A DNA stretch of 64,000 nt from an uncultured Spirochaetota bacterium (GCA_963820525.1 CAWGAA010000003.1:864001-928000); one strand, 5' to 3'. Positions 133 to 16,014 are shown, numbered from the stretch's first letter. A program made the numbers and translations. The notes: a model not told the origin generated them from the sequence alone.

Positions 133-160
133 ATAGAATAAATGCCGTTGGTGCAACGGC

Positions 161-296
161 GCATAACAGTCCGTAATGCGCATCGCCGCCCTGCGGGTAG
201 CTCGGGCTTCGCGGCGCTGCAGCGCGCCGCTCCGCCACATGGCCCTCCGGCCTTGTTGGCCTCCGGGCCACGTCGCATACGGACGGCACGTTGTGT
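161..296 (+). repeat. integron attC site 1
   Basis: R'' GCATAAC (161-167); arms GTCCGTAATGCG / CGCATACGGAC with one extra base; long imperfect palindrome; R' GTTGTGT (290-296). Confidence 0.9.
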
Positions 297-366
297 GACA
301 TTGCGCTTGTTTCCATATATAATCTTAAGCACTGTTACTCTCTGCTAAAGTTCAAAGGAGGATGTA

Positions 367-968
367 ATGTTGTCGAAAAGGTATCTCTTTAGTGTCAAGA
401 ACCTTCCTAATATCATGCAGAAAATCATCGATGGCACCGCTCCGGATAATTTCACTCTTGATCACCTACAAGGGCTTGGTTTTAAGGGGAGTGCAGACAG
501 AGCTATAATCCCAGTATTGAAGGAGCTCTTGGGTTCCTCTCAGAAGATGGGATTCCCACTAAGAGGTATCATGAATACCGTGATAAGTCACAATCCAAAA
601 GAGTTATGGGAGAAGCCTTGCATGAAGCTTATGCAGATTTATTTCACATAAACGCTAATCCTAGTGAGAACGATCGATCCGCCATCATGGGTAAATTTAA
701 GAGCACGCATAATGCGACCGATTCCGTTGCTGAGAAACAGGTTACGACGTTTTTTGCTTTATTGAAGCTTGCCGACCTAACATCTACCGTCAAGAAGAAA
801 ATAGAAAAGCCGCCTGAGGAGATACTGCCGGAAAAAGGAAAAAAGGAACACGCTGACGAGATGCCACTTAGTCTCCGGTATAACATTGAAATTCATTTAC
901 CCGCAACAAAGGATGTAGATGTCTACAATGCAATATTTAAATCGCTTAAAGCCCATCTGCTGGAGTAG
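367..968 (+). pseudogene. DUF5343 family protein, frameshifted near 521-525
   Basis: ORF 367..651 (KNLPNIMQKI..APDNFTLDHLQGLGFKGSADRAIIPVLK) continues in another frame as ALGFLSEDGIPTKRYHEYRDKSQSKRVMGEAL..YNIEIHLPATKDVDVYNAIFKSLK; RBS AAGGAGG upstream. Confidence 0.75.
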
Positions 969-970
969 CT

Positions 971-1552
971 ATGTCAGAAGAATTAACTGATTGGATGTTT
1001 CGAGCGCTGATGTTCGAAGCAGAAGCAGAACATTTCAGAGCCGCAGGAATTAGGTTGGGAGCGGATATGCGGGCGGCAGAAGCTCAGCTTTTAGAAGAGG
1101 CACTTCAGCCATTTCAATTAAGTCTTAGAAATGACGCTCTCCTAATGTGTAGGCTATATGCACAGATATACTGCTTTGAGAACTCCGTAAGAGACGTAAT
1201 AAGATCTAGACTTGAAGAAAAATATAATGTCGACTGGTGGGAGAAAGGTGTACCACAAAAAGTTAAGGAATTTAGTGAAAGTAGACAAAAACAAGCTACA
1301 GAAAACAGCTGGCTAGAGGGTAATAAAAATGATCGTCTTGGCTTCATCGAATTTGGACATCTTGCCTCCATTATTGCGTCCAATTGGGACGACTTTGCAG
1401 ATCTTATTCCGTCTCAGCAGTGGCTAAGTCAACGGTTTGGAGAGCTTGAGCAGGCTAGAAACTATATTGCTCATAATCGTTTGCTGCTTCCGAGCGAGTT
1501 TGCGAGATTGGAGATGTATATTTCTGATTGGAATAAGCAAGTCGGATTATAG
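971..1552 (+). CDS. Swt1-like HEPN domain protein (putative RNase)
   Basis: YCFENSVR...WWEKGVP...FGHL..II..NWDDF and R-x4-H motif RNYIAH; starts 2 bp after the upstream stop. Confidence 0.8.
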   Translation: MSEELTDWMFRALMFEAEAEHFRAAGIRLGADMRAAEAQLLEEALQPFQLSLRNDALLMCRLYAQIYCFENSVRDVIRSRLEEKYNVDWWEKGVPQKVKEFSESRQKQATENSWLEGNKNDRLGFIEFGHLASIIASNWDDFADLIPSQQWLSQRFGELEQARNYIAHNRLLLPSEFARLEMYISDWNKQVGL

Positions 1553-1593
1553 CGCATAGCAACCTGCAATAGTCGATTTGGGAGTGCAACGTC

Positions 1594-1728
1594 ACACAAC
1601 AGCCAGTATGTGCTTCGCCGCCCTATCGGGCGGCTCGGGCTCCACGGCGCTGCAGCGCGCCACTCCGCCACATGGGCTTCGGCCCTCGTTGGGCCTCAGC
1701 CCACGTCGCATACTGGCAGCCGTTATGG
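1594..1728 (+). repeat. integron attC site 2
   Basis: R'' ACACAAC; arms GCCAGTATGTG / CGCATACTGGC; R' GTTATGG (1722-1728); internal sequence closely resembles attC 1. Confidence 0.9.
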
Positions 1729-1938
1729 GCAAGCCCCGTCGGGAGCGCGCGTGACATACGTAACACTTTTGCATCGACGCATACTGAGCACCTTCAGAGT
1801 AGGTCGTTGCCAGGCTTTTTAATTTCTTCAATCTCGAGGACTTGGGTTTGAGGCTCTTTCCCTGCGGGGGGCTGAGAGGGTCCTGAGGGCCTGCGCCGCC
1901 ACAGTAGGCTGAGCGGCGAGGTGTAGTATACTGCAGCT

Positions 1939-4638
1939 ATGCCCGCGCCCATCCTGGCCACGAAGCTGTTCATGCCCCCGCCCCGGCCGCATGCAGTCCT
2001 CCGCACCCGCCTGATCGAACGCTTGAACGAGGACCAGGGGCGAGGACGGGCTCTCACCCTCATCTCCGCCCCTGCGGGCTTCGGGAAGTCCACGCTGCTC
2101 AGCGCGTGGCTCGACCAGCGCGCGCGGCAGGATCCGAAGTTTCGCGTCGCCTGGCTCTCCCTCGACGAGGGAGACAACGACCCCTCCCGCTTCCTTCTCT
2201 ACCTTGCGGCCGCGCTGCACGGCGTCGAGCCGAGCTGCGGAGCCGACGCGATGGCCGCCCTCCATTCGCCCCAGCCGCCTTCGGCCGAGTCGATCCTCAC
2301 CGACCTGATCAACGAGATCGACGGCATCGCAGGGGATATCCTCCTCGTGCTCGACGACTACCACGCGGTCCGCTCCCCCCAGGTCGATGAGGAGCTCGCC
2401 TTCCTCCTCGAGCACCTGCCTGCGCGCATGCGGCTCGTCATCGCCACTCGCGAGGACCCGATCCTGCCTCTCGGCCGCCTGCGCGCCAAAGGCGAGCTTA
2501 CCGAGCTGCGCGCCGCCGACCTGCGCTTTTCGCCCGACGAGGCGGCCGATTTCCTCGGCCGGGTGATGGGCCTGGAGCTCAGGGCAGAGGACATCGCCGC
2601 CCTGGAGAACCGCACCGAAGGCTGGATCGCCGGCCTGCAATTGGCCGCGCTGTCCATGCAGGGTCAGAAAGACATCGCCGGTTTCATCCATTCGTTCACC
2701 GGCAGCCACCGCTTCGTGCTGGACTACCTGGCCGAGGAGGTCCTGCGTCATCAGCCCGAGGGCATCCAGGCCTTCCTCCTGCGGACCTCCATCCTGGACA
2801 GGCTCTGCGGCTCGCTCTGCGATGCCCTCATGCAGGGGGACCGGTGCCCGCGTCCCGACCTCGTCGCCTCCGGGCAGGAGACCCTGGAATACCTCGAGCG
2901 GGCGAATCTCTTCATCGTGCCCCTGGACAGCGAGAGGCGATGGTATCGCTACCACCGCCTTTTTGCCGAGCTTCTCAGGCAGCGGTTACAGCAGAGCCTG
3001 GCCGCCGACAAGGCCGGCAGTGAGACGGGCGCGGCTGCATTACATATCCGGGCCAGCCATTGGTATGAGGATAATGGCCTGCCCATCGAGGCATTCCGCC
3101 ACGCCGCCGCCGCCGCCGACATCGATCGCGCCGAGCGCTTGATCAACAGCAAGGGGATGCCCCTCCATTTCCGCGGCGCCGTGATCGCAATCCTTGACTG
3201 GCTGGCATCGTTGCCTGCCAGCGTGCTGGACGCACGTCCATCGCTCCGGGTGCTGACCGCCACGATGTCCCTCGTCGCTGGGAGGACCACCGGCGTCGAA
3301 GAGGCGCTCCAAGCCGCGGAGCAGGCCCTGCATGGCGCCGAGCCGGACGAAACGACCCACGATCTCATCGGCCGCATCGCCGCCGCCAGGGCCACCCTCG
3401 CCCTCACCCGCTACCAGCCGGACACTATCATGGTCCAGTCGCGCCGTGCGCTCGAGCACCTGCATCCCGACAACCTTCCCTTCCGCCTCACGGCCAAGTG
3501 GACCATGGCCTTCGCGCATTTCCTCCAGGGGGATCGGGCCGCCGCCGGCCGGGCCTATGTGGAGCTGGAATCCATGAGCCATGTCTCCGGGGACGTCTTT
3601 TTCACGCAGTTGTCCCTGTGCAGCCTGGGGGAGGCCCGGGAGCTGGACAACCAGCTCCACCAGGCCGCGGAGACTTACCGGCGCGCCCTTCGATCCTTCG
3701 GCGACCATCCGCAACCGACCGCGAGCCAGGCGCATCTCGGCCTGGCCCGCATATCGTACGAATGGAACGAGCTGGATGCGGCGGAAGAGCATGGGGAACG
3801 AGGCCTCCAGCTCGCGCGGCAGTACGACAGGGCCGTCGACCGGTTCATCCTCTGCGAGCTTATCCTCGCCCGAGTCACGCTGGCCAGGGGACATATCGCC
3901 GTCGTTGGCGCCAGGCTCGACGAGCTCGCGACCACCGCGCGAAGGCGGGGTTTCCCCCATCGCCTCCCGGAGATCGCCGCGCTCCAGGTACCTGTCCTCC
4001 TGCGCCAGGGCCACGTGGAGGCGGCCGCTCATCTCGCCGGAGCCTTCGACCTGCCCCAGAGCCGGGCGCGGGTCCTCCTGGCGCAGAACGAGCCTTCTTC
4101 GGCCCTGGCGTTGCTCGAGCCGCTGCGCGGCCAGATGGAGGCGAAAAGCTGGCAGGACGAGCGCCTCAAGGTGCTGGCGCTCCAGGCGCTCGCTCTCCAC
4201 GCGAAGGGCCGGGAAGACGAGGCGCTGCGCCTGCTCGTCGAGACGATGGAGCTGGCGGAAGGCGGGGGATTCATCCGCCTCTTCCTGGACGAGGGCGCCC
4301 CGATGGCCAAGCTCCTCTCCGTGGCGGCTGCGCGAGGAATGATGCCAGCGTACGCCGGCAGGTTGCTGACAGCCTTCGCGGCGGAGAAGCAGGTGCGCGA
4401 AAGCGCGCTCGCCGAATCGGCTTCCTCCCTCTCCCCAGCGCTCACCGAGCCGTTGAGCCGGCGTGAGCTCGAGGTCCTCAGGCTCCTCGCAGAAGGGCTC
4501 TCCAACCAGGAGATAGGCGAGCGCCTCTTCCTCGCCCTGGACACGATCAAGGGCCACAACCGGAGGATCTTCGAGAAGCTCGAGGTCAAGCGGCGCACGG
4601 AAGCCATCGCCCGTGGCCGCGAGCTGGGCCTGCTGTAG
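1939..4638 (+). CDS. MalT-like STAND ATPase / TPR / LuxR-HTH transcriptional regulator
   Basis: ATKLFMPP start, Walker A APAGFGKST, Walker B LVLDDYH, TEGWIAGLQL, C-terminal LSRRELEVL..GLSNQEI HTH. Confidence 0.92.
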   Translation: MPAPILATKLFMPPPRPHAVLRTRLIERLNEDQGRGRALTLISAPAGFGKSTLLSAWLDQRARQDPKFRVAWLSLDEGDNDPSRFLLYLAAALHGVEPSCGADAMAALHSPQPPSAESILTDLINEIDGIAGDILLVLDDYHAVRSPQVDEELAFLLEHLPARMRLVIATREDPILPLGRLRAKGELTELRAADLRFSPDEAADFLGRVMGLELRAEDIAALENRTEGWIAGLQLAALSMQGQKDIAGFIHSFTGSHRFVLDYLAEEVLRHQPEGIQAFLLRTSILDRLCGSLCDALMQGDRCPRPDLVASGQETLEYLERANLFIVPLDSERRWYRYHRLFAELLRQRLQQSLAADKAGSETGAAALHIRASHWYEDNGLPIEAFRHAAAAADIDRAERLINSKGMPLHFRGAVIAILDWLASLPASVLDARPSLRVLTATMSLVAGRTTGVEEALQAAEQALHGAEPDETTHDLIGRIAAARATLALTRYQPDTIMVQSRRALEHLHPDNLPFRLTAKWTMAFAHFLQGDRAAAGRAYVELESMSHVSGDVFFTQLSLCSLGEARELDNQLHQAAETYRRALRSFGDHPQPTASQAHLGLARISYEWNELDAAEEHGERGLQLARQYDRAVDRFILCELILARVTLARGHIAVVGARLDELATTARRRGFPHRLPEIAALQVPVLLRQGHVEAAAHLAGAFDLPQSRARVLLAQNEPSSALALLEPLRGQMEAKSWQDERLKVLALQALALHAKGREDEALRLLVETMELAEGGGFIRLFLDEGAPMAKLLSVAAARGMMPAYAGRLLTAFAAEKQVRESALAESASSLSPALTEPLSRRELEVLRLLAEGLSNQEIGERLFLALDTIKGHNRRIFEKLEVKRRTEAIARGRELGLL

Positions 4639-4722
4639 CAGCCTTCCCGCCTGCACCGGTCTCCCGCATCCCTGAAAACGACACTCCGAATGACACTTTC
4701 GTGTCTACGCGCCGCGGGGCGG

Positions 4723-4835
4723 AATGGACATACTTGCACTATCAAATGATCACAGGAGGCATTTCATGGACACCTATCGACGATCGGGGATTGTGACGGG
4801 GATCTTGTTCATCGCAGCGGATGCAGCCGGTTTCC
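4723..4835 (+). repeat. 113-bp direct repeat copy 1 (RBS + truncated DUF4386 5' end)
   Basis: Matches 5612-5724 with 4 mismatches. Confidence 0.9.
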
Positions 4836-4918
4836 CGCGGCTATTATACGTTGGCTCCTTCGGTGGAGACCCGAAAAAAGCAACATTTTCGTTCATGACC
4901 GAGTAAAAGGAGAAAATC

Positions 4919-5608
4919 ATGGGAACAACAGAGAAGAAATCGCGGATTCTTGGGCTGGCTTTTCTGATCCAGTTCGTCACATCGTTCACGAACGGTCTCG
5001 TCGTGCTCCCCATGGCCACCGGGGTTCAGGGCTTCGGTCTGCTCGAGAACATCGGCCAAACCATGGCCAACATCGCGAAAAACGCGGGGCTCATCCACCT
5101 CGACATCCTCTTGGAACTGCTAACCGCAGCCGGTGTGATCTTCCTCGGTGCGATTCTGTACTCGGCGGTGAGAAAACAGAACGAAGGACTGGCTTTGACC
5201 GCCTTCGGTCTATACGTTCTGGAAGGCGCCTTGATCGCGGTCACAAAACTCGGACTCTTCGCCCTCTTGGTCCTCAGCAAGCAGTTCATCGCCGCGGGCA
5301 GCCCCGTCTCGCTGGAACCGACGGCCAGGATGGTATACGAAGTCATGTCGTACTCGTCCACGATGTTCAATTTTGCCTTCTGCCTGGGCGCAACGATCTT
5401 CTACGCCCTGCTTTTCAGAGCCCGCACAGTGGCGTGGCCCTTGTCGCTGTGGGGTCTGGTGAGCGTCCAGGGCGTCTTCGCGGGAGTATTGATAGGTCTC
5501 TTCGGCGTCAAAGCTCCCATCTTCCTCTACGTCCTCTACATCCCCTTCGAACTCGTGATCGCCGTCTGGATTCTCATCAGGGGCGTGAAAAAAGAAACGG
5601 TGAACTAG
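4919..5608 (+). CDS. DUF4386 family membrane protein
   Basis: Multiple hydrophobic segments, ..NEGLAL.., WPLSLWGL, FELVIAVWILIRG; RBS AAGGAG. Confidence 0.75.
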   Translation: MGTTEKKSRILGLAFLIQFVTSFTNGLVVLPMATGVQGFGLLENIGQTMANIAKNAGLIHLDILLELLTAAGVIFLGAILYSAVRKQNEGLALTAFGLYVLEGALIAVTKLGLFALLVLSKQFIAAGSPVSLEPTARMVYEVMSYSSTMFNFAFCLGATIFYALLFRARTVAWPLSLWGLVSVQGVFAGVLIGLFGVKAPIFLYVLYIPFELVIAVWILIRGVKKETVN

Positions 5609-5611
5609 CGC

Positions 5612-5724
5612 AATGGACATGCTTGCATTATCAAAGGATCACAGGAGGCATTTCATGGACACCTATCGACGATCGGGAATTGTGACGGGGATCTTGTTCA
5701 TCGCAGCGGATGCAGCCGGTTTCC
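5612..5724 (+). repeat. 113-bp direct repeat copy 2
   Basis: Matches 4723-4835. Confidence 0.9.
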
Positions 5725-6347
5725 TGTCATTTTTAGCGCAACCGCTTATCAACGCCCCGGACTACCTGACGAAAATCTCCGCGAACGAAGTGACGGTCCT
5801 CGCGGGGGCGTTGCTGGTCTTCATCATGGGCTGGGCCGATGCCGGCATCGGGATTTCGATGTATCCGATTCTGCGGAGGCACAACGAAGGCCTCGCACTG
5901 GGTGCTGCCGGATTCAGGATCATCGACGGGGTCTTCCATTGCATCGGCGCTGTTCTCATCCTCCTGCTGGCGACCTTGAGCCGGGAGTTCATCAAGGCAG
6001 GACCAGCCGATCTGGCGCAGTTCCAGAACCTCGGCGCGCTGCTGCGGGAAGGGCGCACCTGGGTGGGCGATGTGGCGGCTCTCCCCGCCTGGTGCATCGG
6101 CGCGTGTCTGTACTATTCGCTGTTCTTCAAGACGCGGCTGGTCCCTCGCTGGCTGTCCCTGTGGGGGCTCGCCGGGATCACCCTGACCATAGCCGGAAGC
6201 ATCCTGGTCCTGTTCCGCCAGATCGCCCCCATGTCGACCGTCCAGCTGCTCATGTACCTGCCCTGCGCTCTGCAGGAAATAGTGCTGGCGATCTGGCTCA
6301 TCGCGAAGGGATTCAATCCATCCGCAATCGCCTCGCCGCAGCGCTGA
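5655..6347 (+). CDS. DUF4386 family membrane protein
   Basis: GILFI..YPILRRHNEGLALG..LVPRWLSLWGL..QEIVLAIWLIAKGF; RBS AGGAGG. Confidence 0.82.
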   Translation: MDTYRRSGIVTGILFIAADAAGFLSFLAQPLINAPDYLTKISANEVTVLAGALLVFIMGWADAGIGISMYPILRRHNEGLALGAAGFRIIDGVFHCIGAVLILLLATLSREFIKAGPADLAQFQNLGALLREGRTWVGDVAALPAWCIGACLYYSLFFKTRLVPRWLSLWGLAGITLTIAGSILVLFRQIAPMSTVQLLMYLPCALQEIVLAIWLIAKGFNPSAIASPQR

Positions 6348-6377
6348 CGGCGGCGCGGTGCAGCAGCGAAGAGCCTC

Positions 6378-6611
6378 ATGGAGTATCAGATACGGATCAA
6401 GGGCGAGCTGGGGCAGGAATGGGCAGACTGGTTCGGAGGCTCTGCCATCGCTCGGGAGGGAGACGGCGTCACGCTCCTGACCTGCGCCGTGGTCGACCAG
6501 GCTGCGCTGTATGGCCTTCTCAGGAAACTGCGGGACCTGGGTCTGCCCCTGCTCTCGATCAATCGCATTGACGACTGCCCCGAGCGGAAGCCCGAGGCTA
6601 AGTCGACATAA
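6378..6611 (+). CDS. small conserved hypothetical protein (ACT-like fold suspected)
   Basis: YQIRIKGEL..WADWF..VVDQAALYGLLRKLRDLGLPLLSI, a pattern I associate with MalT/DUF4386 neighbourhoods. Confidence 0.7.
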   Translation: MEYQIRIKGELGQEWADWFGGSAIAREGDGVTLLTCAVVDQAALYGLLRKLRDLGLPLLSINRIDDCPERKPEAKST

Positions 6612-6656
6612 CCGTCCCGCGTGGCCAGACCACCGCGACGACAGGAGGCATCGAAC

Positions 6657-7361
6657 ATGACGAATTTTATAGAAGACGTACGGCCGCGGACCATGGCCCG
6701 CATCGCCGGGTTCCTGTACCTCAGTTTCATCATTTTTATGGCACTCGCCAACGTGGTTGGCCGCATGGGCATCATCGTAGACGGCGACACAGCGGCCACG
6801 GCCGCGAATATCATCGCGAAGGGAATACGTTTCCGCATCGGCTTCGTGAGCGATCTATTGTCAGCCCTGCTTTTCCTCTTGACCGCGTGGGCACTCTACG
6901 CGCTCCTGAAACGGGTGAACAGGACTTTGGCCTTATTGTTCCTGCTGCTCAACATGTGCGGGGTCGCCATGCAATGCTTCAGCATGATTCTCCTGTACGC
7001 GGCCCTTCCTCTCCTGGGAGGAGGCGGATACCTCGCCGCGTTCACCACTAATCAACTCAACGCCCAGGCCATGTTCTTCCTCGGTCTCTACAAAGCGGGA
7101 TTCTCGAGCGCCCAACTCTTCTACGGCGCATGGACCTTGCCTTTGGGGTACCTCGTGTACAAATCCGGATTCCTCCCCAAAGCCCTCGGCGTCCTTCTCA
7201 TGATTGATTGCCTGGCCATACTCGTCTGGTTCTTCCAGTTTATCTTTCTGCCCAGTTATGCGACCATAAGCTATCCCTGCTATGCAGTCAGCTTCATCGC
7301 GGAATTCTCGCTTACCCTCTGGCTGCTCATCAAAAGCATCAAGGAGGAAAGGCTTATGTGA
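6657..7361 (+). CDS. DUF4386 family membrane protein
   Basis: ARIAGFLYL..GDTAATAANII..FRIGF..PLGYLVYKSGFLPKALG..AEFSLTLWLLIK; RBS AGGAGG. Confidence 0.82.
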   Translation: MTNFIEDVRPRTMARIAGFLYLSFIIFMALANVVGRMGIIVDGDTAATAANIIAKGIRFRIGFVSDLLSALLFLLTAWALYALLKRVNRTLALLFLLLNMCGVAMQCFSMILLYAALPLLGGGGYLAAFTTNQLNAQAMFFLGLYKAGFSSAQLFYGAWTLPLGYLVYKSGFLPKALGVLLMIDCLAILVWFFQFIFLPSYATISYPCYAVSFIAEFSLTLWLLIKSIKEERLM

Positions 7362-7573
7362 GAGTCTTCATCGCGCCGCAGCGGGTGAGTCATATTTCCA
7401 TGGCACAGCGGCAGCAGTCTTTTCCAGGAACACATTTTGCACGAGTAGAGCTCCCCGGACAGGCACAGGACCAAGATTCAGGGTTGGTTCCGCTCAGTAG
7501 CCCGAAATGACAGTTGTTATCAGTCAGAGACGAGCAATAGTGAGTCGGATCAGAGACTGAATAACAGGAGGTA

Positions 7574-8086
7574 ATGATTATGAGCGCAATGGATAAGCAC
7601 CTTCAGAGCATCCAATACACATCACAAGGAGAAGGCAAAATGCGAAAAAGAGGTTCGATAGTTCTCTCAATATGGAGCGGTATCAACATTTTCGTTGCTT
7701 CCTTAATATTAACCATTGTCGTCTTTCACTTTGGAAACTCACCGCTTCTGGTAATGGTCTTTGAAAAATCTGAAATCGCTAGACTTGACGCCAAAGTCAT
7801 TTCGGCTCTCAATTGTTTGACAATCCTTTACAACTCTTGTGATGTTGCCCTCTCAGTACTGGCATTATTCATTATCTGGTCAGGTCTAATCAATGGCAAA
7901 AGGTGGGCTTTTTGGGCATTGCTGATCACGATTGGCTTTGTAGAGATATTGGCCTTTGTCGCTTCCGCAGAAGTCGGAAATGTCTGGCTGAGATGGCAAG
8001 TGAATGTTGTTCAGAGCGTTTTATACATTGTGGGCATTGGTTTGTCTGGCTATTCCATATTCAAGTCCAAGCAGCAGGCCGTATGA
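7574..8086 (+). CDS. hypothetical membrane protein
   Basis: Four hydrophobic segments; lower GC; start uncertain. Confidence 0.55.
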   Translation: MIMSAMDKHLQSIQYTSQGEGKMRKRGSIVLSIWSGINIFVASLILTIVVFHFGNSPLLVMVFEKSEIARLDAKVISALNCLTILYNSCDVALSVLALFIIWSGLINGKRWAFWALLITIGFVEILAFVASAEVGNVWLRWQVNVVQSVLYIVGIGLSGYSIFKSKQQAV

Positions 8087-8235
8087 TCAAACAAATGATA
8101 GGTTAATCGACCCCGAGAGCGCTGCCTATCTGATACGGGTGTGGTCAGAATGGAGCCTGCCGACCGACCGGCTGCGGGCGGCGAGTTCGAGCGACCGGTT
8201 AAGCCATGCCGCACGGGCATCATAAAACAGGAGGA

Positions 8236-9210
8236 ATGAGCATGAAAGCGATAGTGCAAACGAGATACGGGCTGCGCAGCCTGCGGATCATGGATGCACC
8301 CAAACCGGTCCCGGGAGAGAATCAAGTCCTGGTCAGGGTCCATGCCGCGGCCCTGAATTATGCCGTCATGTTCCGGGTGACGGGGAAGCCTTTTCTTGCC
8401 CGCCTGATGATGGGCAGCCTCCTGAAGCCGAAGCGATGGATCCCCGGAGGCGAAATGTCGGGACGGGTGGAAGCGGTCGGCGCGAAGGTGCGCGCCTTCA
8501 AGCCTGCCGACGAAGTCTACGGGGACACGTGCAAATGCGGATACGGAGCGCTCGCCGAGCTTGTCTGCGCCGACGAGAGCGCGCTCGCCCTGAAGCCGAC
8601 CACGCTTTCGTTCGAAGAGGCGGCGGGCGTGCCCCAATCGGCCCTCGTCGCCCTGCAGGGCCTCCGCGCCGGAGGGATCCACAAAGGCCAGAAGGTCCTG
8701 ATCCATGGAGCCTCCGGCGGCATCGGAACCTTCGCCGTGCAGATAGCGAAATCCTTCGGCGCCGGGGTGACGGGCGTGTGCGGCGCCAAGAACCTGGACA
8801 TGGTGCGCTCGCTTGGCGCCGATCGCGTCATCGACTACGCCACGGAAGGCGTCGCGGAGGAGGCGGAAGCCTATGACCTCATCCTGGCGATCCGCGGCAC
8901 CCGCCCGGTTCGCGATTATTACCGCGCGCTGCGTCCGGGCGGAACCTACGTTATGGCCGGAGGCTCCCCTTTCCGATTCATGATGACCGCTTTCCAGGGA
9001 TCGCGGCTCTTCAGGTCCGGAAGCAAGACGATGAGGAGATTCACCTACTCGCCGAACGCGGAGGACCTCTTGCTCATGAAGGGGCTCATAGAAGCGGGGA
9101 AGGTCCGGTCCATCATCGACAAGGTATATCCTCTGAGCGAGGCGGCCGAAGCATTCCGTTACCTCGAGAAGGGACATGCGAGGGGGCGAGTGATAGTTCG
9201 CGTGGGATAA
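8236..9210 (+). CDS. NAD(P)-dependent medium-chain dehydrogenase/reductase (quinone oxidoreductase-like)
   Basis: MKAIVQTRYG, VLVRVHAAALN, GASGGIG nucleotide-binding motif, GHARGRVIV C-terminus. Confidence 0.88.
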   Translation: MSMKAIVQTRYGLRSLRIMDAPKPVPGENQVLVRVHAAALNYAVMFRVTGKPFLARLMMGSLLKPKRWIPGGEMSGRVEAVGAKVRAFKPADEVYGDTCKCGYGALAELVCADESALALKPTTLSFEEAAGVPQSALVALQGLRAGGIHKGQKVLIHGASGGIGTFAVQIAKSFGAGVTGVCGAKNLDMVRSLGADRVIDYATEGVAEEAEAYDLILAIRGTRPVRDYYRALRPGGTYVMAGGSPFRFMMTAFQGSRLFRSGSKTMRRFTYSPNAEDLLLMKGLIEAGKVRSIIDKVYPLSEAAEAFRYLEKGHARGRVIVRVG

Positions 9211-9306
9211 TGGGCGAGCGTTGAAGTCAGGGATCAGCTGAGTCCCCTCCCGCAATCGATAAGATTTGCGTCGTCGAAACCGTCGTAAAAAAGGTACGGG
9301 GGCACC

Positions 9307-9519
9307 ATGGGTCCCTCGGCCCGCGGGGCGATGTACCGGCTCGTCGAGCTTCTCGGAGATGAGGAATGGCTGGTGCGAAAGGCGGTCGTCTATGCCCAGT
9401 CGTTTATCGCTCCAGATGATCCGGATGTATTGAAAGCGCTGCGAAATCGCCTGAATGACCCGAAAGACCAGGTGCGGGCAGCCGCCAACCTCTTTCTAAG
9501 AACGCTTGAAGATCAATAG
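9307..9519 (+). CDS. HEAT-repeat protein fragment
   Basis: LLGDEEWLVRKAVV..LNDPKDQVRAAA; short and probably 5'-truncated. Confidence 0.45.
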   Translation: MGPSARGAMYRLVELLGDEEWLVRKAVVYAQSFIAPDDPDVLKALRNRLNDPKDQVRAAANLFLRTLEDQ

Positions 9520-9603
9520 GAAAGAACACTAACAATGATTGTGGAGCTGTACTGACGGTTCTTATAAGGGATTAGTGTAAAATCTGGCACAACGGCACAT
9601 AAC

Positions 9604-11317
9604 GAGTCTGTAGGAAAAGCTAGCAAAAAACAACGCCCTCCTTCGGGCTCATTATTGAACTACAAATGATCAGAAACTAAAAATCACTATTTCTGGCTGT
9701 TAGCTCTCGGACATTCTATGCCCGTCTTCTTTTAGCTCATGCATTTGCGCCTGCCATCGCCTTTGAAATCTTTCCTATATTATGAACCATACAATACAAT
9801 AACCATTGAACATTCACTTTCGCCTTCGTTCTCAGAGTGAATCGATTCATTTTTTTGTGGAATGTGATATTAGCAAACACCGGCTCGATGATCCCCATCC
9901 GTCTTGAGTATAAATCCCTGACATCCGACCGGTCGATCTTCTGGATCATCCGTGCAGAATAATTGGTGGTATCATTCTTGTCATCTATAAAAAGCCTCCG
10001 CTTACCGCTGCTATTCTTTTTCCGATGAAAACATTTATCGGTAAACCGACAACCCTTACAATCGGACGCTTTAGATTGATACCGATGCCCCGAAGATCCG
10101 TGGAGTACTGCGTGTCCTATATGTTTGAGTGTTTTCCCGTTGGGACAGCTATACGTGTTTGTCTTCTCATTATACGTGAAATCTTGAGGTCCAAACTTAT
10201 ACTCGATACCTGAATGTTCTTTCCTGTCCGCGAAGCGCTCGTCTCGTTTTCGAAAGTTGGAGTCCGGGATGATCGCCTCGATTCTCTTCTCTGCCGCCGT
10301 CTTCAGGTTTTCTTCACAGAAGTAATTGGTGTCAGCAAGTATGGTCTTTCCTGAAAGAGGCTCTTCCTGGTTGGTGATGGTTTTCAGATTCTCTTCTGCC
10401 AGCTCAAGAACGGGTTTGAACGTCCCGTGTTCCTACCCTTTCCCATAAGCTTCGGTGGCTATTATGACCTGGTTTTGTTCGTCCGCGAGGGTAATCCCAT
10501 TATACCCCTGGATCATGCCATGGGACATCTTGATCTTTGCGCTGTCGTTGTCCGTGATATTCGATTGTATTTCCTTACCTCTATTCCCCTGTTTCGGACT
10601 CTGTGAACCAAGGAAGCCCTCGATGCGTTTTATCTTTGAATCGATCCTATCAATGGCTTTTTTTCTCTTTAGCGAAACCTCTGATCCTGATACGGTTTCA
10701 GCTCTGTCGGTTACCGTATGCTTTTGAATGAGCATTTTCACCGTTCGTTCAAGTTTTTCTTTTCTCCTGTTGAGATCCCTGAAGGTTCCACTTGATTCTT
10801 TGGACGCGTTGGAAGGCAGCTTGCATCCGTCAATCGCAAACAGTTTCCCGCCGATGAGCTCCATGTCCTGGCACACCATGAGGATTTTTAGAAATATGCC
10901 GCTGATTTCATCCTTCATCGATGAGATGAAATCCGCTATGACCGTGAAGTGTGGAATAGAGTCCGCGGAAAGCGCTTTGGCGATGATATTTGTCTCACAA
11001 AGCTCCATGATCCGCCGTGATGAAAATATGCCTTTGGAATAGGCGAAAAGAATGATTTTCAGTAAAACCCGAGGATCATAGGCAGGTGCACCGGTAAGAT
11101 CGTTTTTATACTTTGAATCGAGTACGGATAAATCGATTTTTTCGTTTATCAGGTAATTGAGAGTGTATTCAAAGGTATCAGGAAGCAGCTGCTCACTGAA
11201 TTGGACGACAACGAACTTTCCCTGATCTTGGTTGCATTCTTTATACCGCGCCATTGTGCTATTGTGCGATGGATATCAATTAGCGTAAAGTATCTGTTTG
11301 GCTTTTCCTACAGAATC
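9604..11317 (-). mobile_element. IS1182-family insertion sequence A (1714 bp)
   Basis: TIRs GAGTCTGTAGGAAAAGC / GCTTTTCCTACAGAATC (16/17 match); AAC duplicated at 9601-9603 and 11318-11320. Confidence 0.9.
9737..11254 (-). pseudogene. IS1182-family transposase with single in-frame TAG at 10433-10435
   Basis: GAPAYDPRVLLKIILFAYSKG..SSR, AIDGCKL, TDNDSA, GYN, YSRRMGIIEPVFANI; frame continues in phase across the TAG. Confidence 0.88.
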
Positions 11318-11410
11318 AACAGCGTATTTGCGCTTCGCGCGCCAGTAAGCGCGCTCGGGGCTTCGCCCACATGCCTCGCTTCGCTCGGCACGTCGTATAC
11401 GCGCGTGACG

Positions 11411-12362
11411 TTAGCTGCAAGTTTTTCGGGCGGAAGTATAGATATGATTTTGCGCTATCCATGGCGCAAAAAACAATCTGAAGAATATAGATATTTTGAA
11501 TAGTAGAATTGAAAATAGTATATTAATTATATGAAGTTTCGAAAAACTTCATTAGGAGGTTTCATTTTGAAAAATGAAAAATCTACTGAACAAACACCAT
11601 CAACTAGAATGAATCCTAAGGTTGATGTATTTCTAAGTAAAGCCAAAAAGTGGCAGGAAGAAGTGGAGAAATTGAGAATGATCATTCTTGACTGTCAGCT
11701 GACCGAAGAATTGAAGTGGGGTTGGCCATGTTACACGTTTCAGAAAAGTAATATAGTTTTAATAAATGGATTCAAAGAATACTGTGCGCTTTTGTTTTTC
11801 AAAGGTGCCTTGTTAAATGATGCCAATGGTATTCTAATCAAAATTGGGGAGAATACGCAGGCGGGGCGCCAGATTCGGTTCACCAATGTTCGAGAAATAG
11901 TTGAGATGGAACCCATTTTGAAAGCCTATATTTATGAAGCCATTGAAGTGGAAAAAGCCGGTTTAAAAGTGAATTTTAAAAAGAATACAGAACTCATATT
12001 TCCTGAAGAATTTCAAAATAAATTAGATGAAAACCCTGTCTTGAAAACTGCTTTTGATGCATTGACGCCGGGACGGCAAAGAGCATACAATCTTTATTTT
12101 TCTGCACCCAAACAATCCAAAACTCGGGAGTCAAGGGTTGAAAAATGTATGGAGCAAATTCTCAATGGAAAGGGATTAAATGATCAGTAATTCGATGAGA
12201 AAAACCAGCAGCTAACAGCGGCTATACGCTGCGGTGCGTCCTCGCGCGGCTCCGGGCGCTCCTCGGCCCTAGCGGCGGGCACATTTGCCTATGGCAAGCC
12301 TTTTGCGAAGCAAAAGTCTCGCCATTCGCTACGCGACCGGCAAACGTCGTATAGCCGCACCG
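11411..12362 (+). mobile_element. integron gene cassette (YdeI/DUF1801)
   Basis: GTTAGCTGCAAGTTTTTC at the left end pairs with GAAAAACCAGCAGCTAAC at attC 4 R''. Confidence 0.88.
11531..12190 (+). CDS. YdeI/OmpD-associated DUF1801 family protein
   Basis: MNPKVDVFL..LTEELKWG.PCYT..FKEYCALLFFKGALL..LTPGRQRAY..AKQ-like SKTRESRVEK; true start may be downstream. Confidence 0.88.
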   Translation: MKFRKTSLGGFILKNEKSTEQTPSTRMNPKVDVFLSKAKKWQEEVEKLRMIILDCQLTEELKWGWPCYTFQKSNIVLINGFKEYCALLFFKGALLNDANGILIKIGENTQAGRQIRFTNVREIVEMEPILKAYIYEAIEVEKAGLKVNFKKNTELIFPEEFQNKLDENPVLKTAFDALTPGRQRAYNLYFSAPKQSKTRESRVEKCMEQILNGKGLNDQ

Positions 12363-12368
12363 TTAGCT
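12210..12368 (+). repeat. integron attC site 4
   Basis: R'' AGCTAAC; perfect arms GCGGCTATACG / CGTATAGCCGC; R' GTTAGCT. Confidence 0.92.
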
Positions 12369-12394
12369 GAAATGGACAAGGGAGAATAGATGAA

Positions 12395-12916
12395 ATGAAG
12401 ATTGATGTCGAATATCTAAAATTTATGTGGCCGATGAGACATTTCTTAGTAACATGTGGGGAAATAGAAGTAAAATCAAATATCATAGCAGTCAGCTTTT
12501 GTATGCCTGTATCAAAAGAACCCCCACTTATAGCTTGTGCCATCGGGAAGAAATCTTTTTCATATGAGTTAATCAAAAGCAATAACGAATTTATTGTAAA
12601 TATCCCTCCTGCTCAGCTAGAACCGAGAATATATTATTGTGGTTTCCACTCAGGATATCAAGTTGATAAATTTAAAGAAACGGGATTAACTCCACAACCA
12701 GCACGAAAAGTGAGAGCTCCTATTATTGCTGAGTGTCTAGCTCATATTGAGTGCAAGGTTAAACAAGAAATCGAAACAGGAGATAAAAACCTGTTTATAG
12801 GTGAAGTAATAGAGGCGTATGCAAATGAAGATATTGTAAAAGGTGCGGGGAAAGTTGAGTATGCGGAAGGCGATTTTCCACGCAAAGTATATGCCACAAG
12901 ATTTAAAAGCTCGTAG
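12395..12916 (+). CDS. flavin reductase (flavoredoxin-like) family protein, cassette-borne
   Basis: PVSKEPPLIA, SYELIK..EFIVNIP, CGFHSG..VDKF..GLT, APIIAECLAHIECK, GDKNLFIGEV. Confidence 0.88.
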   Translation: MKIDVEYLKFMWPMRHFLVTCGEIEVKSNIIAVSFCMPVSKEPPLIACAIGKKSFSYELIKSNNEFIVNIPPAQLEPRIYYCGFHSGYQVDKFKETGLTPQPARKVRAPIIAECLAHIECKVKQEIETGDKNLFIGEVIEAYANEDIVKGAGKVEYAEGDFPRKVYATRFKSS

Positions 12917-12931
12917 TCCACTTCAGCTAAC

Positions 12932-14663
12932 CAATCTGTTGAATAATTGCGTTTAAAGAAAAGTGATCTACCGATTTTATTTCCAATCAATCAGAATAGT
13001 TGTTTTTATTTAATCATCAGTTCTGAAGAGCGGCTCCTCTATCATCCCACCTGCCAGGCTTCAATCTTTTTTATCTCGCCTTTGCCGTATTGTTTTATTT
13101 TTTGGATATTGTGAACCAGCATATACAAAAGCCATTGTATTTTGACCTTGGCCCGTCCCCGTAACGTAAATCGATTCAGTTTCTTATGGTACGTGATATG
13201 TGCGAATACCGGTTCCACAATCCCCATTCGGCGAGCGTACATGTCACGTCCTTCCTCCGTATCGATCTTTTCCCTCATCTTTACAGACCAGGTCTTTTTT
13301 TTGGGCTTGGTCGTGACAAAAAGTGTCCGTGATTTCGCCTGCCGGTTGAGACAGCGGTAATGATTGACGCACATGCGGCAATCCAGTATTGATGCTTGAT
13401 ACCGGTCCCCACAGTACCCGTGAAAGAGGATTCCTTTGCGCTTCAAGGTCAGCCGCTTGCCCATCGGACAATAGTAGCAACCGTCCTTTTCGTCATACTG
13501 GAAATCCTCCTGCCGGTACTTCACCCGTTTCTTCTGCTCTTCCTTATTTTCAGGATACCGTGGATCCCGCACCCTGAAGCCATGATCGGGGATATACCCG
13601 TCAATCCCATTCCGGAGCAGAAACCGACAATTATCCTCGGAGAAATAGTTCGTATCGGCCAGGAGGGTGGCTGATTTCAATCCCAGGCCGAAACATTTCA
13701 TCCTCCTTAAGTTTTCCTTCGCCCCTTCCACCATGTCGCCCAAATATTCATGCTCGCAGACGTTGCCGAAGGCGTCCGCGCTCACCACGATCTGGTGTTT
13801 CCCGTCCGTGAGGGCCAGTCCGTTATAGCCCTGAATCACGCCGCGGCTCGACGCCATCTTGGCGCTCTCGTTATCCGTGATATTGCTCTTATTCTCCCGG
13901 ATTCGTCGCCCGGGTTTCGGATCGTTTTTCTCAAGAAACTCGCGAATTCGTTCGATTTTCCTATCCAGACGCTCCTTTTGTACGCGTAGCTTTTCCCTTT
14001 GTTCTTTGTCCTCTCGGTCGGTCCGTTTGTGTTTCGCTATCAGGTAACTGACCGTTTTCTCTAGTTTCTCCTTTTTTCCCTCAAGCTCCTTCAGGGTACC
14101 GCTCGATTCTTTGGAGGCGTTGGAGCTGAGTTTACAGCCATCGAGAGCGAAGATTTCCCCGCCGATCAGATCGAGCTGGGCGCAGATCAATAACACCTGA
14201 CGGAATATTTCCGTAATGTCGGTTTCCATAGATTTAATGAAGTTTGCGATCGTAGTATGGTCCGGAGCATTGTAGCCCGTCATCGCGATGAACACGACGT
14301 TTTCCCGACACAGGGTTTCCATCCCGCGCGACGATATGACCGATTTCGCCTAGCAATTGATGATGATTTTCAGCAACAGGCGTGGATCGTATGCGCGCAC
14401 TCCTCGCGTTTCGTTATGATATCTTGATTCAAAAAGCGACAGGTCCAATCGATCGAGCACCTGACAGCTTGCGTATTCGAATGTTCCTGGAATAAGCTGA
14501 TCCTTGAGACTCACTGGGATGAGCATATTCTGCTCGTTGTGATGATCTTTGAAGCGCGCCATTTCCCCTCCCGAGCCATAACGTGACTGTGCCATTAACG
14601 ATTCGTTGCTGTCAATGATTTTATGGCATAGAATCATTCCCGGAGGATAAATTCAACAGATAC
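12932..14663 (-). mobile_element. IS1182-family insertion sequence B (1732 bp)
   Basis: Ends share an 11-bp inverted core ATCTGTTGAAT in the same register as the IS A TIRs; AAC duplicated at 12929-12931 and 14664-14666. Confidence 0.85.
13042..14562 (-). pseudogene. IS1182-family transposase with single in-frame TAG at 14350-14352
   Basis: MARFK..RAYDPRLLLKIIINC*AKSVISSRGMETLC..ALDGCKL..TDNESA..GYNG..LADTNY..YARRMGIVEPVF. Confidence 0.88.
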
Positions 14664-14826
14664 AACAAAGCGTAGACGCTTCGCGCCCTTCGGGCGCTCG
14701 GCCTTCGGCACATTTTTTGCCTGCGCTTCGCTCCGGCAAAAAACGTCGTCTACGCTTGGAACTTTATAGGCCATTGCCCTAGCCGCTATATTCAGCATAA
14801 TACAATGTTAGGCTCGTTTATGAGAA

Positions 14827-16014
14827 TTGCTGTTGCCAACGCGGGGTTTTCCTGTGAATGATCTTCCCGTAATCTGCTGGATCGAATCCGGCGAGCCTTG
14901 GTCTGCCCTCTGGCGATCCGAAAGCGGCGTACTTCCACCTAGACGTGTAGTGATTGCGGATGACAGCCTCAGCGCAGATACAGCCTATCGTCTTGCCTGC
15001 AAAGGCACAGCGATGCTGTGGCGCGGCGATTTTAACAACGCGCGCCAACTGCTGCAGGCGCTTTCGCGCCGTCTAGAACGCAAGCTGCGCCGCGCGGAGC
15101 GCAATGCCCCCAAGCCGATGCCGTCGCTTACCGAAGCGTTTCATCAGCTTCGGCAAAGTCAGGCGCAGCGCGCGCGTATATTGGGCATGCTGCTGGTTAC
15201 GCTTGAGAGCGATTACCGCGTGCCCTTGCCGCGTGCGCCCAATGTGCAGCAAGCCTGTATTGAGGCATATGGTCCCGGCGAGCAGGCTTCCGTCGTTTCG
15301 CTGCGTGAACTGCTCGGCTTGATTGGCGCTCATGAATGGCGCAGAAAAGGGGTGCCGATCCCGGCACTGGATGATTGCATCTACCCGCACTATGGTGTTT
15401 TTTCTCCAATTCGCGGCGAGTATGTGGAGCTGGTGGCCGAAGCGCCGCTGCCCTCACTTGAACTAGCCTTCGATATCGGTTCAGGTACCGGAGTACTGGC
15501 AGCCGTGTTGGCGCGTCGTGGCGTGGTACGCGTGGTGGCTACTGATCATGATGCGCGCGCGCTGGCATGCGCCCGTGAGAACATTGCACGGCTTGGGTTG
15601 AGCGGGCAAGTGGAAGTCGTATACGCCGACCTGTTTCCAGATGGCCGAGCGCCGCTGATTGTCTGCAATCCGCCCTGGATACCGGCACGGCCAAGTTCTC
15701 CACTGGAACACGCGGTGTATGACCCGGAGAGCCGCATGCTGATAGGGTTCCTCACCGGGCTGGCTGCGCACCTGGAACCGGGTGGGGAGGGCTGGCTGAT
15801 CCTTTCTGATTTCGCCGAGCGTCTGGGACTGCGCACGCGAGATCAGTTGCTCGCTGCCATCGACATGGCAGGGTTGAAAGTAGCGGGCAGGTTGGATGTG
15901 CGTCCGCACCACCCCAAGGCGCTAGACATTACCGATCCGCTCCACGCAGCCCGTGCGGCGGAAATCACCTCGCTCTGGCGGCTGGCGGCGCGACGCGTTC
16001 AGAACTCCCTTTAG
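14827..16014 (+). CDS. class I SAM-dependent methyltransferase (MTS/PrmC-like)
   Basis: FDIGSGTGVLA motif I and VCNPPW motif IV; start may be GTG 14854. Confidence 0.85.
   Translation: MLLPTRGFPVNDLPVICWIESGEPWSALWRSESGVLPPRRVVIADDSLSADTAYRLACKGTAMLWRGDFNNARQLLQALSRRLERKLRRAERNAPKPMPSLTEAFHQLRQSQAQRARILGMLLVTLESDYRVPLPRAPNVQQACIEAYGPGEQASVVSLRELLGLIGAHEWRRKGVPIPALDDCIYPHYGVFSPIRGEYVELVAEAPLPSLELAFDIGSGTGVLAAVLARRGVVRVVATDHDARALACARENIARLGLSGQVEVVYADLFPDGRAPLIVCNPPWIPARPSSPLEHAVYDPESRMLIGFLTGLAAHLEPGGEGWLILSDFAERLGLRTRDQLLAAIDMAGLKVAGRLDVRPHHPKALDITDPLHAARAAEITSLWRLAARRVQNSL

Follow-up and report, generated by a model that had tools for sequence, protein, structure and literature searches.

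Two IS1182-family elements at the same nucleotide of integron attC sites point to a cross-phylum clade that probably prefers the attC core

In a 64,000-nucleotide stretch of DNA from an uncultured Spirochaetota bacterium (hereafter the window; GCA_963820525.1, CAWGAA010000003.1:864001-928000), two divergent insertion sequences of the IS1182 family, IS A and IS B, each lie directly 3' of the AAC in the R'' box of an integron attC site. They are probably decayed members of a large IS1182 DDE clade that extends across phyla and prefers the attC core. An attC-targeting IS1182 lineage had been proposed in an earlier sequence-only reading of the window, and the proposal gained support from the clade copies in the genome of origin (four of four at attC sites), from the flanks of relatives (GTT on both sides in 49 of 66), and from attC support at 22 of 35 assessable sites. 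The region is laid out as follows.

9597..9603, plus strand: R'' box ACATAAC of the attC split by IS A, with the left AAC copy at 9601-9603 (sequence; the 5' flank GGCACAACGGCACATAAC matches how the main attC family of the genome begins)
9604..11317, minus strand: IS A, terminal inverted repeats at 9604-9620 and 11301-11317 (sequence, reading frame, Pfam, NF033551, end consensus)
9740..11254, minus strand: IS A transposase frame, 505 codons, one TAG at 10433-10435 (translation, NF033551, alignment)
11318..11416, plus strand: remainder of the IS A-split attC, with the right AAC at 11318-11320, the L'' arm, the L' arm, and R' GTTAGCT at 11410-11416 (sequence, hairpin test, complementarity)
11531..12190, plus strand: cassette gene with DUF1801 and YdeI/OmdA domains, low G+C (domain matches, composition)
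12210..12368, plus strand: intact attC, R'' AGCTAAC to R' GTTAGCT, between the IS-bearing sites; the uninterrupted form of the target (sequence, nhmmer)
12395..12916, plus strand: cassette gene, flavin reductase-like, low G+C (domain matches, composition)
12925..12931, plus strand: R'' box AGCTAAC of the attC split by IS B, with the left AAC copy at 12929-12931 (complementary to the R' GTTAGCT of the preceding attC)
12932..14663, minus strand: IS B (sequence, reading frame, Pfam, NF033551, tree)
13045..14637, minus strand: IS B transposase frame, 531 codons, one TAG at 14350-14352 (translation, alignment)
14664..14769, plus strand: remainder of the IS B-split attC, with the right AAC at 14664-14666, L''/L' arms AAAGCGTAGACG ... 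CGTCTACGCTT, and a degenerate R' (sequence)

IS1182 family elements are about 1.3-2 kb long, and IS A and IS B measure 1714 and 1732 bp. With a caret marking the insertion point here and below, the junctions read ...GGCACATAAC^GAGTCTGTAGGAAAAGC...GCTTTTCCTACAGAATC^AACAGCG for IS A and ...CAGCTAAC^CAATCTGTTGAAT...ATTCAACAGATAC^AACAAAGCG for IS B; the target duplication is exactly 3 bp, AAC, for both, and both transposases run antisense to the cassettes. The insertion at one and the same nucleotide, the AAC duplication, and the antiparallel transposase that the sequence-only reading had described were thereby confirmed, as was its claim of a common register of the terminal inverted repeats, NNNNCTGT, in two elements of clearly different sequence: the transposases are only 45% identical and both score above the curated cut-off of 270 bits for the IS1182 family transposase model NF033551 of NCBIfam (277 bits for IS A, 284.5 bits for IS B). 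The inverted repeats match at 16 of 17 positions in IS A and have an identical core of 11 bp in IS B, and they are common to 66 relatives as well as to distant IS1182 copies of the genome of origin; the ends of IS A agree with the family consensus GAGNCTGTAG...CTACAGNCTC. Both transposases carry an N-terminal DUF772 domain (PF05598) and DDE_Tnp_1_6 (PF13751), and the motifs ITDN(D/E)S, LADTNY, and (I/V)EPVFA, invariant in an alignment of four sequences, are the candidate carriers of the DDE residues. The transposase is the only long reading frame of each element, with no group IIC intron reverse transcriptase found, and an Rfam search of window positions 1-16000 at E values up to 1 matched no family, group II ribozymes included (Rfam has no attC model).

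Each transposase frame is interrupted once. The in-frame TAG of IS A aligns with a Q of intact relatives, and that of IS B with a Y in IS A and its relatives. Recoding of TAG was ruled out, as this pattern fits ordinary CAG-to-TAG and TAY-to-TAG nonsense changes, and the two copies are probably inactive.

The identity of the target sites as attC rests on several features. At the window sites, paired L''/L' arms lie between two core boxes in inverted orientation, R'' (RYYYAAC) and R' (GTTRRRY), and the R' at the IS B site, the last of the array, is degenerate (CTTTATAGG in place of GTTATAGG); the 3' end of this site resembles that of the genome's main attC family, for which 40 pairs are predicted, 14 of them with compensatory changes. 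We scored the L''/L' arm duplex adjoining AAC...GTT against 7104 control AAC sites. This hairpin test gave p = 0.018 at the IS A site, where the AAC was paired with a GTT just downstream (total length 114) and not with GTTAGCT, and found no GTT partner at the IS B site. The R' GTTAGCT of the IS A site, read from the sequence, is complementary to the next R'' AGCTAAC, and such complementarity between an R' and the next R'' holds at the sites of IS A, IS B, and one intact relative. A strict AAC...GTT scan of the window was too stringent a criterion, as it found only one attC. With the TIGR02249 profile, the genome of origin yielded two integrases (IntI) above the cut-off, both on contig C1, and none beside the array of the window, which looks like an attC cluster without an integrase.

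The same target recurred in other genomes. A homologue search yielded 564 relatives, for 80 of which the loci were fetched with flanks, and the element ends were mapped by searching for the family end motif, which located both ends in 66 of the 80 loci (a generic inverted-repeat finder had picked unrelated repeats in 17 of the 80 and was set aside). These 66 elements, at 41-59% identity and from many phyla, had flanks of GTT on both sides in 49 cases, AAC on both sides, i.e., the flipped orientation, in 3, GCT on both sides in 7, and GAT, GCA, and AAA duplications in one each; 3 had no matching duplication and 1 ran off a contig edge. The orientation bias relative to GTT^A is accordingly 49 versus 3. 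As many as 45 of the 49 GTT sites had distinct flank pairs, and the logo of these 45 displays an invariant GTT, A at +1 in 38, Y at -3 in all 45, and G at -5 in 31. Insertions at the core triplet were present in Spirochaetota, Desulfobacterota, Nitrospirota, Gammaproteobacteria, Bacillota, Bacteroidota, and others, and cultured strains with relatives include Sedimenticola hydrogenitrophicus SB48, Desulfospira joergensenii DSM 10085, and Pseudoalteromonas piscicida 2515. A protein search of a plasmid collection gave three distant matches at 37-45% identity, all on replicons of Pseudoalteromonas and Catenovulum, and none on clinical plasmids.

Most of these insertions lie at the GTT/AAC of attC-like hairpins in cassette arrays, as judged by rule-based tests (hairpin and complementarity) rather than by IntegronFinder or a covariance model, and the expectation that homologues would map to attC was in this form upheld. 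Leaving out one Nitrospirota genome treated below, the hairpin test gave p < 0.05 at 19 of 35 assessable sites. Exact complementarity between R' and the next R'', a signature of cassette boundaries, was found at 13 fetched loci and added L052, L072, and L085, for a total of 22 of 35 supported attC core sites; the short-flank locus L068 was supported as well, and 13 of the 35 assessable sites had support from neither test. The hairpin test is insensitive: an attC of the genome of origin identified by nhmmer scored p = 0.32, and the IS B site had no partner at all. Constrained minimum-energy folding, which the arm-duplex test replaced, was biased towards long spans and gave noisy results (6 of 51 reached the pooled 5% level), and a MAFFT alignment of attC sites of very different lengths looked unreliable. 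At L055, the array opens with intI (453 aa) and an attI core, GTTATGT; the first cassette follows directly, its R'' ACATAAC complements this core, and its R' contains the element. IntI above the cut-off was present in two of five host genomes tested.

The tree puts IS A and IS B in one clade, with IS B on its own deep branch, and shows GTT/attC targets on all basal branches and in most of an 84-row clade. Apart from L014, the rows with other targets form one nested 14-row subclade (support 97), in which the insertions lie away from attC and have duplicated GCT, GCA, or AAA or showed no duplication. The attC-targeting rows spread over nearly the whole clade retrieved. Targeting of attC is not exclusive: the GCT subclade uses a related motif, CT-GCT^AT, and a Nitrospirota genome has 14 copies in the hairpin loop within a non-attC repeat. 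In the GCT subclade, six of seven loci lack a hairpin, and this type of transposase can therefore do without one.

The choice between the two boxes differed by lineage. Basal sites used R'' in eight of eight cases, whereas R' was used in about 12 of 13 sites of a large derived clade, a tally based on the direction of flanking genes, the bulge position, and intI/attI; the R'' polarity in the window and basal lineages was taken from cassette gene direction, spacer asymmetry, and extra bases, with calibration on L055, and single-base bulges were judged by eye, as the automated reading of spacers and bulges was only partly usable. Use of R'' makes the element antisense to the cassettes in the window lineages, and use of R' makes it parallel to the array in the derived clade. 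The R'' and antisense placement initially described for the window is therefore characteristic of the basal lineages and does not extend to the derived clade. What stays constant is the triplet GTT/AAC, located at the base of the stem within G-N-Y-GTT^A, and the orientation is fixed relative to this motif. The use of R'' or R' tracked the bases beside the GTT (GCT-GTT versus GNC-GTT), and this correlation suggests that primary sequence may explain part of what appears to be structure recognition.

In the genome of origin, the clade has four copies, all at YTAAC^IS^AAC of attC sites with different flanks on both sides. Two are intact relatives of IS A (G000:C3:860869-862585 and C1:3086308-3088024), and, to judge from their sequences, which are 99.5% identical at different attC sites, they show recent transposition. 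A search of this genome for miniature derivatives recovered eight ends, all belonging to the four full copies. One alternative is that the transposase reads only G-N-Y-GTT^A, and that insertions in attC are harmless and kept while others are lost. The motif is indeed clear in the logo, the duplications of relatives are also short and specific but differ in sequence (CTAG in the genome of origin, GCT in the subclade), GTTA is rare in this 60% G+C genome (5751 sites), and the choice between R'' and R' follows neighboring bases. Yet G.YGTTA occurs 1006 times in the genome of origin, and survival of this kind would predict copies at many other intergenic motif sites. Taking the number of attC sites as about 20 (18 nhmmer hits plus the two IS-split sites of the window), and assuming that attC boxes make up no more than about 44 of the 1006 motif occurrences, we calculate the chance of four out of four at attC as about 4e-6, which excludes chance as the cause of this placement. 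Furthermore, the close relatives L049, L051, and L052, two of which have identical proteins, lie at attC sites that share only YC-GTT-A-K. We consider it unlikely that the motif combined with survival accounts for the data.

Two further explanations are very improbable. Were a circular element captured by the integrase at the attC GTT core, the flanking GTTs would be a cassette boundary and not a duplication; cassette boundaries do read GTT...GTT, and the stem-side end GTT^GAG(Y) matches the R' consensus GTTRRRY in several lineages, but the window and basal elements sit in R'', where IntI makes no crossover, clade members duplicate 3 bp at non-attC sites (GCT, GAT, GCA, AAA), and the elements have inverted repeats and a DDE transposase. 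Copying of one ancestral insertion together with its attC, by duplication or cassette shuffling, could apply to seven of the Nitrospirota copies, which have identical immediate flanks, but is contradicted by the differing flanks of the four copies in the genome of origin, the 45 distinct flank pairs, and the presence of 45%-identical elements from deep separate branches at the same position.

We thus favor a preference of the clade for the attC core. The transposase would make cuts staggered by 3 bp around GTT/AAC, the triplet that lies innermost in an R box of attC, where the stem has its base, and would thereby duplicate it. Site choice would have two parts. One, shown by the flanks, is the asymmetric motif G-N-Y-GTT^A, read with the transposase-start end of the element directed towards the stem. 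Some further property of attC DNA would then contribute, for which the most likely candidate is palindromic, flexible DNA prone to form hairpins or cruciforms beside an unpaired spacer; recognition of the attC hairpin by the transposase, suggested at the outset, may be part of this. Elements that land inside arrays destroy no gene, and arrays would consequently act as a tolerated niche, an interpretation that corresponds to the proposed safe harbor; travel of the element with cassettes is speculative. There is a small but real chance that the clade is adapted to integron biology beyond the motif, in which case the choice of R'' or R' would be nonrandom and the GTT^GAG-Y end would rebuild a core site, so that the attC stays usable by the integrase and the element is carried between arrays and hosts within a cassette.

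Elements of the IS1111-attC group are not known to leave a target duplication. This group (ISPa21, ISPst6, and ISKpn4; IS110/IS1111 family) occupies one defined attC position, in the published cases close to the 5' end and in antisense orientation to the cassettes (PMC3001079; PMC11187229), and uses a DEDD transposase guided by a seekRNA (PMC11187229). The window elements are alike in their fixed position near one attC end and their antisense placement, but differ in their DDE IS1182 transposase, terminal inverted repeats, 3-bp core duplication, and use of R'' or R' by lineage; lacking a DEDD transposase and subterminal repeats and having a 3-bp duplication, they are not IS1111-attC members. 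Group IIC-attC introns are described in PMC3001079 as a monophyletic, attC-specialized lineage of a wider class of mobile elements, antisense to the cassettes. As retroelements they consist of a ribozyme and a reverse transcriptase, neither of which is present in IS A or IS B, and their target is the bottom strand. Within the IS1182 family, a precedent exists in IS1272/TnSha1 of staphylococci, which inserts at the base or in the stem of hairpin-forming inverted repeats and depends little on primary sequence; on palindromic targets as a feature of the family, the same reports refer to Siguier et al. 2015 (PMC4923244; PMC5678879). IS1272 is not known to be linked to integrons; it inserts in either orientation, with loss of part of the hairpin and without a target duplication. 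In the present clade the hairpin remains whole, a fixed triplet is duplicated, the orientation bias is strong, and most insertions lie at attC.

The genome of origin itself offers another comparison: two distant IS1182 elements, in seven copies, also end in GAGCCTGTCG and are flanked by CTAG, with none of the seven at attC positions found by nhmmer. They share the GAGNCTGT ends and a short, sequence-specific duplication with the attC clade, but theirs is a 4-bp palindrome, as opposed to the asymmetric 3 bp at attC. Our literature search found no description of attC-targeting IS1182 elements, in line with the earlier reading, which likewise named no such DDE group, and the only attC-specific parasites named in the available parts of the literature examined are the IS1111-attC elements and group IIC-attC introns (PMC3001079; PMC11187229). 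An attC-specialized IS1182 group is, apparently, undescribed so far.

The clade accounts for transposase genes that surveys count among cassettes and is relevant to the annotation of cassette boundaries. It also constitutes a natural system for asking how a transposase of the cut-and-paste type finds a structured, sequence-variable site, and the intact copies in the genome of origin, together with the relatives in cultured strains, open this question to experiment. Integron cassette arrays count among the main routes by which bacteria exchange genes, and a widespread DDE clade would add a further, mechanistically different kind of attC parasite to them.

The window carries two insertion sequences of the IS1182 family, each within an integron cassette recombination site (attC).

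Insertion sequences of the window, from reading of the sequence
9604-11317, transposase on the minus strand, IS A
12932-14663, transposase on the minus strand, IS B

As the sequence-only reading had described, each element lies directly after the AAC of an R'' box and duplicates it. Exactly three bases, AAC, are present on each side of IS A (left junction GGCACATAAC/GAGTCTGTAGGAAAAGC, right junction GCTTTTCCTACAGAATC/AACAGCG) and of IS B (left CAGCTAAC/CAATCTGTTGAAT, right ATTCAACAGATAC/AACAAAGCG), and the left AAC ends a seven-base box that fits the R'' consensus (ACATAAC for IS A, AGCTAAC for IS B). Against the NCBIfam IS1182 model, both proteins score above the curated cut-off, and both have a DUF772 plus DDE_Tnp_1_6 architecture; their mutual identity is 45%. 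The minus-strand transposase frame has 505 codons with a single TAG at codon 274 in IS A, and 531 codons with a single TAG at codon 96 in IS B. Aligned relatives have Q and Y, respectively, at these positions; by sequence, each TAG is an ordinary nonsense mutation, and neither window copy is likely to be active.

The elements interrupt a cassette array that runs on the plus strand of the window, which corresponds to C3:864001-928000 of the source genome (G000; 5.05 Mb, 60% G+C, four contigs).

attC sites of the window, plus-strand array
~160-297, attC
~1590-1730, attC
~12210-12368, attC
two further attC sites, split by IS A and IS B

A DNA profile built from three window attC sites found 18 such sites in the genome, on C3 and C1. 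The consensus fold of 11 aligned members contains 40 pairs, 14 of them with compensatory changes, and the attC family of this genome thus consists of real structured sites. A TIGR02249 search of the genome returned two integron integrases above the cut-off, both on C1, and none adjoining the array of the window. The C3 array is preceded, about 5 kb before its first attC, by a 270-aa tyrosine recombinase (G000:C3:825829-826608) that matches the integron-integrase model except at positions 179-237 and is thus without the extra IntI segment.

Several further features of the array were observed. At 34-45% G+C, the cassettes lying between IS A and IS B look foreign. A hybrid appearance marks the attC that IS A splits (9580-9603 with 11318-11416). 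On its 5' side stands GGCACAACGGCACATAAC, the head of the main GC-rich attC family of the genome, whereas the part beyond the element belongs to the low-G+C attC family found in the two cassettes that follow; attC sites of another Spirochaetota MAG (loci L008-L010) resemble this low-G+C family. The last attC, where the array stops, has a degenerate R' (14740-14769; CTTTATAGG versus GTTATAGG in relatives). The next gene, at 14827, encodes a methyltransferase, and ~12 kb past the array end, at 27331-27444, the main attC family has one isolated, partial match. Between two attC sites, 1727-9540 spans 7.8 kb, unusually large for a single cassette, with no attC detected within; a MalT-like STAND regulator of 899 aa, three DUF4386 paralogues, a zinc-dependent dehydrogenase and an ORF with HEAT repeats are encoded there. 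A DUF5343 gene at 367-968 lies in two overlapping frames (N-terminal part 367-651, C-terminal part 606-968), which suggests a frameshift, and is followed in the same cassette by a Swt1-like HEPN gene.

A BLAST search of IS A against the genome revealed two further copies, both with an intact transposase of 504 codons. They share 86% identity with IS A and 99.5% with each other.

Intact relatives of IS A in the source genome
C3:860869-862585
C1:3086308-3088024

Their junctions (CCATAAC/IS/AACAGCGG and ACCTAAC/IS/AACAGCAA) occupy the same attC position as those of IS A and IS B, with both flanks different in sequence, so that all four copies of the clade in this genome sit at the AAC of an attC R'' box. 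The genome contains 1006 occurrences of the motif G.YGTTA; assuming ~20 attC sites and ~44 boxes against these 1006 motifs, the chance of finding four of four copies at attC is ~4e-6. The two intact copies, 99.5% identical and at different attC sites, show recent transposition within the source genome. Two distant IS1182 elements (~25% identity), present in seven copies, provide an internal control: they have the same GAGCCTGTCG ends and CTAG flanks, and none of the seven lies at any attC found by the genome profile search.

Distant IS1182 elements of the source genome (ends GAGCCTGTCG, CTAG flanks)
G000:C1:334323-335870, 439380-440927, 642889-644436, 863568-865115 and 2887545-2889092, first element
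G000:C1:1675673-1677193 and 2761395-2762915, second element

Two copies of the first of these lie in opposite orientations within homologous GC-rich sequence, and it too may therefore prefer repeated sequence. No miniature derivatives of the clade were found in the source genome.

Homologues were then collected and their ends and flanks extracted, as the sequence-only reading had proposed. Scanning one genome per species gave 564 relatives, of which the best 80 (41-59% identity) were fetched with flanks. The hosts of these best 80 comprise Spirochaetota, Thermodesulfobacteriota and other "delta" lineages, Nitrospirota, Gamma- and Betaproteobacteria, Bacillota, Bacteroidota, Planctomycetia, Omnitrophota, Acidobacteriota, Atribacterota and one archaeal MAG, with the closest relatives coming from Spirochaetia MAGs. 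Using the end motif of the family, both ends were located in 66 of the 80 loci.

Flanks at the 66 loci
GTT on both sides, 49 loci
AAC on both sides, element flipped, 3 loci
GCT on both sides, 7 loci
GAT, GCA and AAA, 1 locus each
without matching duplication, 3 loci
cut by the contig edge, 1 locus

These counts make a three-base duplication the hallmark of this IS1182 clade and GTT its usual target. Across 45 distinct flank pairs, GTT is invariant, A follows at +1 in 38, C or T stands at -3 in all 45 and G at -5 in 31, with little conserved beyond these positions. GTT/IS/GTTA junctions were seen in the Pseudoalteromonas piscicida chromid as well.

Rfam has no attC model, and the attC status of targets in other genomes rests on three purpose-made tests. 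In the hairpin test, the element was removed by script and the bases beside the AAC were tested for pairing with those beside a GTT at a distance of 30-150 nt; the same loci supplied 7104 other AAC sites as controls. With one Nitrospirota genome excluded, 19 of 35 assessable sites gave p<0.05 in this test, which is insensitive, as one source-genome attC gave p 0.32 and the IS B site, with its degenerate R', yielded no partner. The second test uses the boundaries between cassettes, since within an array each R' must be exactly complementary to the R'' that follows it. This cassette-boundary rule holds at 13 fetched loci, for instance at L012 (GTTATCG to CGATAAC; GTTAGGC to GCCTAAC) and L020 (GTTAGCC to GGCTAAC; GTTAACC to GGTTAAC). 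It adds L052, L072 and L085, bringing attC support to 22 of 35 sites, and also supports L068, whose flank is too short for the hairpin test. At L055, an intI of 453 codons precedes an attI with the core GTTATGT, after which comes the first cassette. The attC of this cassette starts with ACATAAC and ends with AAGCGTT/IS, the element lying directly in its R', parallel to the array. The whole forms a compact integron platform (L055:605-2408), whose first cassette holds an 89-aa ORF on the opposite strand.

Read in transposase orientation, 49 of the 52 GTT or AAC sites show the arrangement stem side-GTT/IS/GTT-A-outside. Because both attC R boxes direct GTTRRRY outwards, this geometry fits either R'' with an antisense element or R' with a parallel one. 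For the window, three lines agree that the box used is R'': the flanking cassette genes all lie on the plus strand, the spacer adjoining the element is the shorter one, and it is in the arm adjoining the element that the main family has its extra unpaired base. The spacer and bulge features agree with those on the R'' side of the attC at L055. There, intI and attI fix the polarity, and the two bulged bases of the 5' arm correspond to G and T in the bottom strand. The R'' position with antisense transposase, proposed from the sequence alone, thus holds for the window but is not general, since the box used in L055 and L056, among others, is R', with a parallel element.

Box assignments by proxy (flanking-gene direction and position of the single-base bulge)
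R'': four source-genome copies, L007, L008, L009, L012, L025, L051
R': L016, L018, L020, L022, L029, L048, L052, L055 (anchored by intI and attI), L056, L076, L078, L083, L084, L085

L079 is consistent with R', judged from the side of its intI. By these proxy assignments, the R'' cases fall mostly in basal lineages of the tree and the R' cases mostly in a large derived clade. Published attC parasites lie near the 5' end in antisense, as described in passages of PMC3001079, whereas here that layout is found in the window only.

Targeting of attC, the lineage trait proposed earlier, is supported by the 22 of 35 sites but is not exclusive. A nested subclade of 14 tree rows (support 97) has GCT, GCA or AAA duplications, or none found, and has left attC in an apparent retargeting event within the clade. 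Its GCT target consensus is CT-GCT/AT, and six of seven GCT loci have no hairpin (GCT subclade loci: L043, L050, L057, L065, L066, L069 and L077; also L017, L023 and L074). Furthermore, one Nitrospirota genome (G001; L030-L042, L046) contains 14 copies with GTT duplications, none of which passed the attC hairpin test. Their target triplet lies in the loop ACGTTA (ACGTT/A) of a 9-bp hairpin; from copy to copy the stem co-varies (GGGGAGG with CCTCCCC, GGGCTGG with CCAGCCC), and the hairpin lies inside a ~185-nt repeat with 25-bp perfect inverted ends, of which the genome has at least 10 element-free copies (e.g., G001:C2:619814-619998 and C2:1179582-1179764). Given these GTT insertions in non-attC hairpins, what the targets have in common is the motif within hairpin-rich surroundings rather than attC itself.

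The clade combines an IS1182 transposase of the DDE type and inverted repeats with 3-bp duplications at a short asymmetric motif. Its orientation bias is strong, and in many hosts its insertions are strongly enriched at the cores of attC sites. As the motif alone is far too frequent, something beyond it would steer the element to attC, and palindromic, hairpin-prone DNA adjoining an unpaired spacer is the favored candidate, since IS1272 of the same family inserts into hairpins. Passages of PMC4923244 and PMC5678879 describe that insertion as occurring without duplication and with deletion, whereas here attC is left intact with a normal 3-bp duplication, so that integration would have to use ordinary duplex DNA at the R box. 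The observation itself is confirmed and the attC-targeting interpretation is supported with these refinements.

In a full-text literature search, with ISfinder outside its scope, no account of attC-targeting IS1182 elements was found. Passages of PMC11089894 report IS5, IS3 and IS110 transposases in cassette arrays, and those of PMC9137128, PMC3971601, PMC12444791, PMC11089894, PMC3001079 and PMC11187229 name only IS1111-attC and group IIC-attC as attC-specific elements. The present clade would add an attC-specific insertion sequence of a different enzyme family and a different insertion chemistry. At its stem-side end GTT-GAG(Y) is rebuilt, which matches GTTRRRY fairly well; speculatively, the attC might thereby stay usable and the element might travel along with the cassettes.
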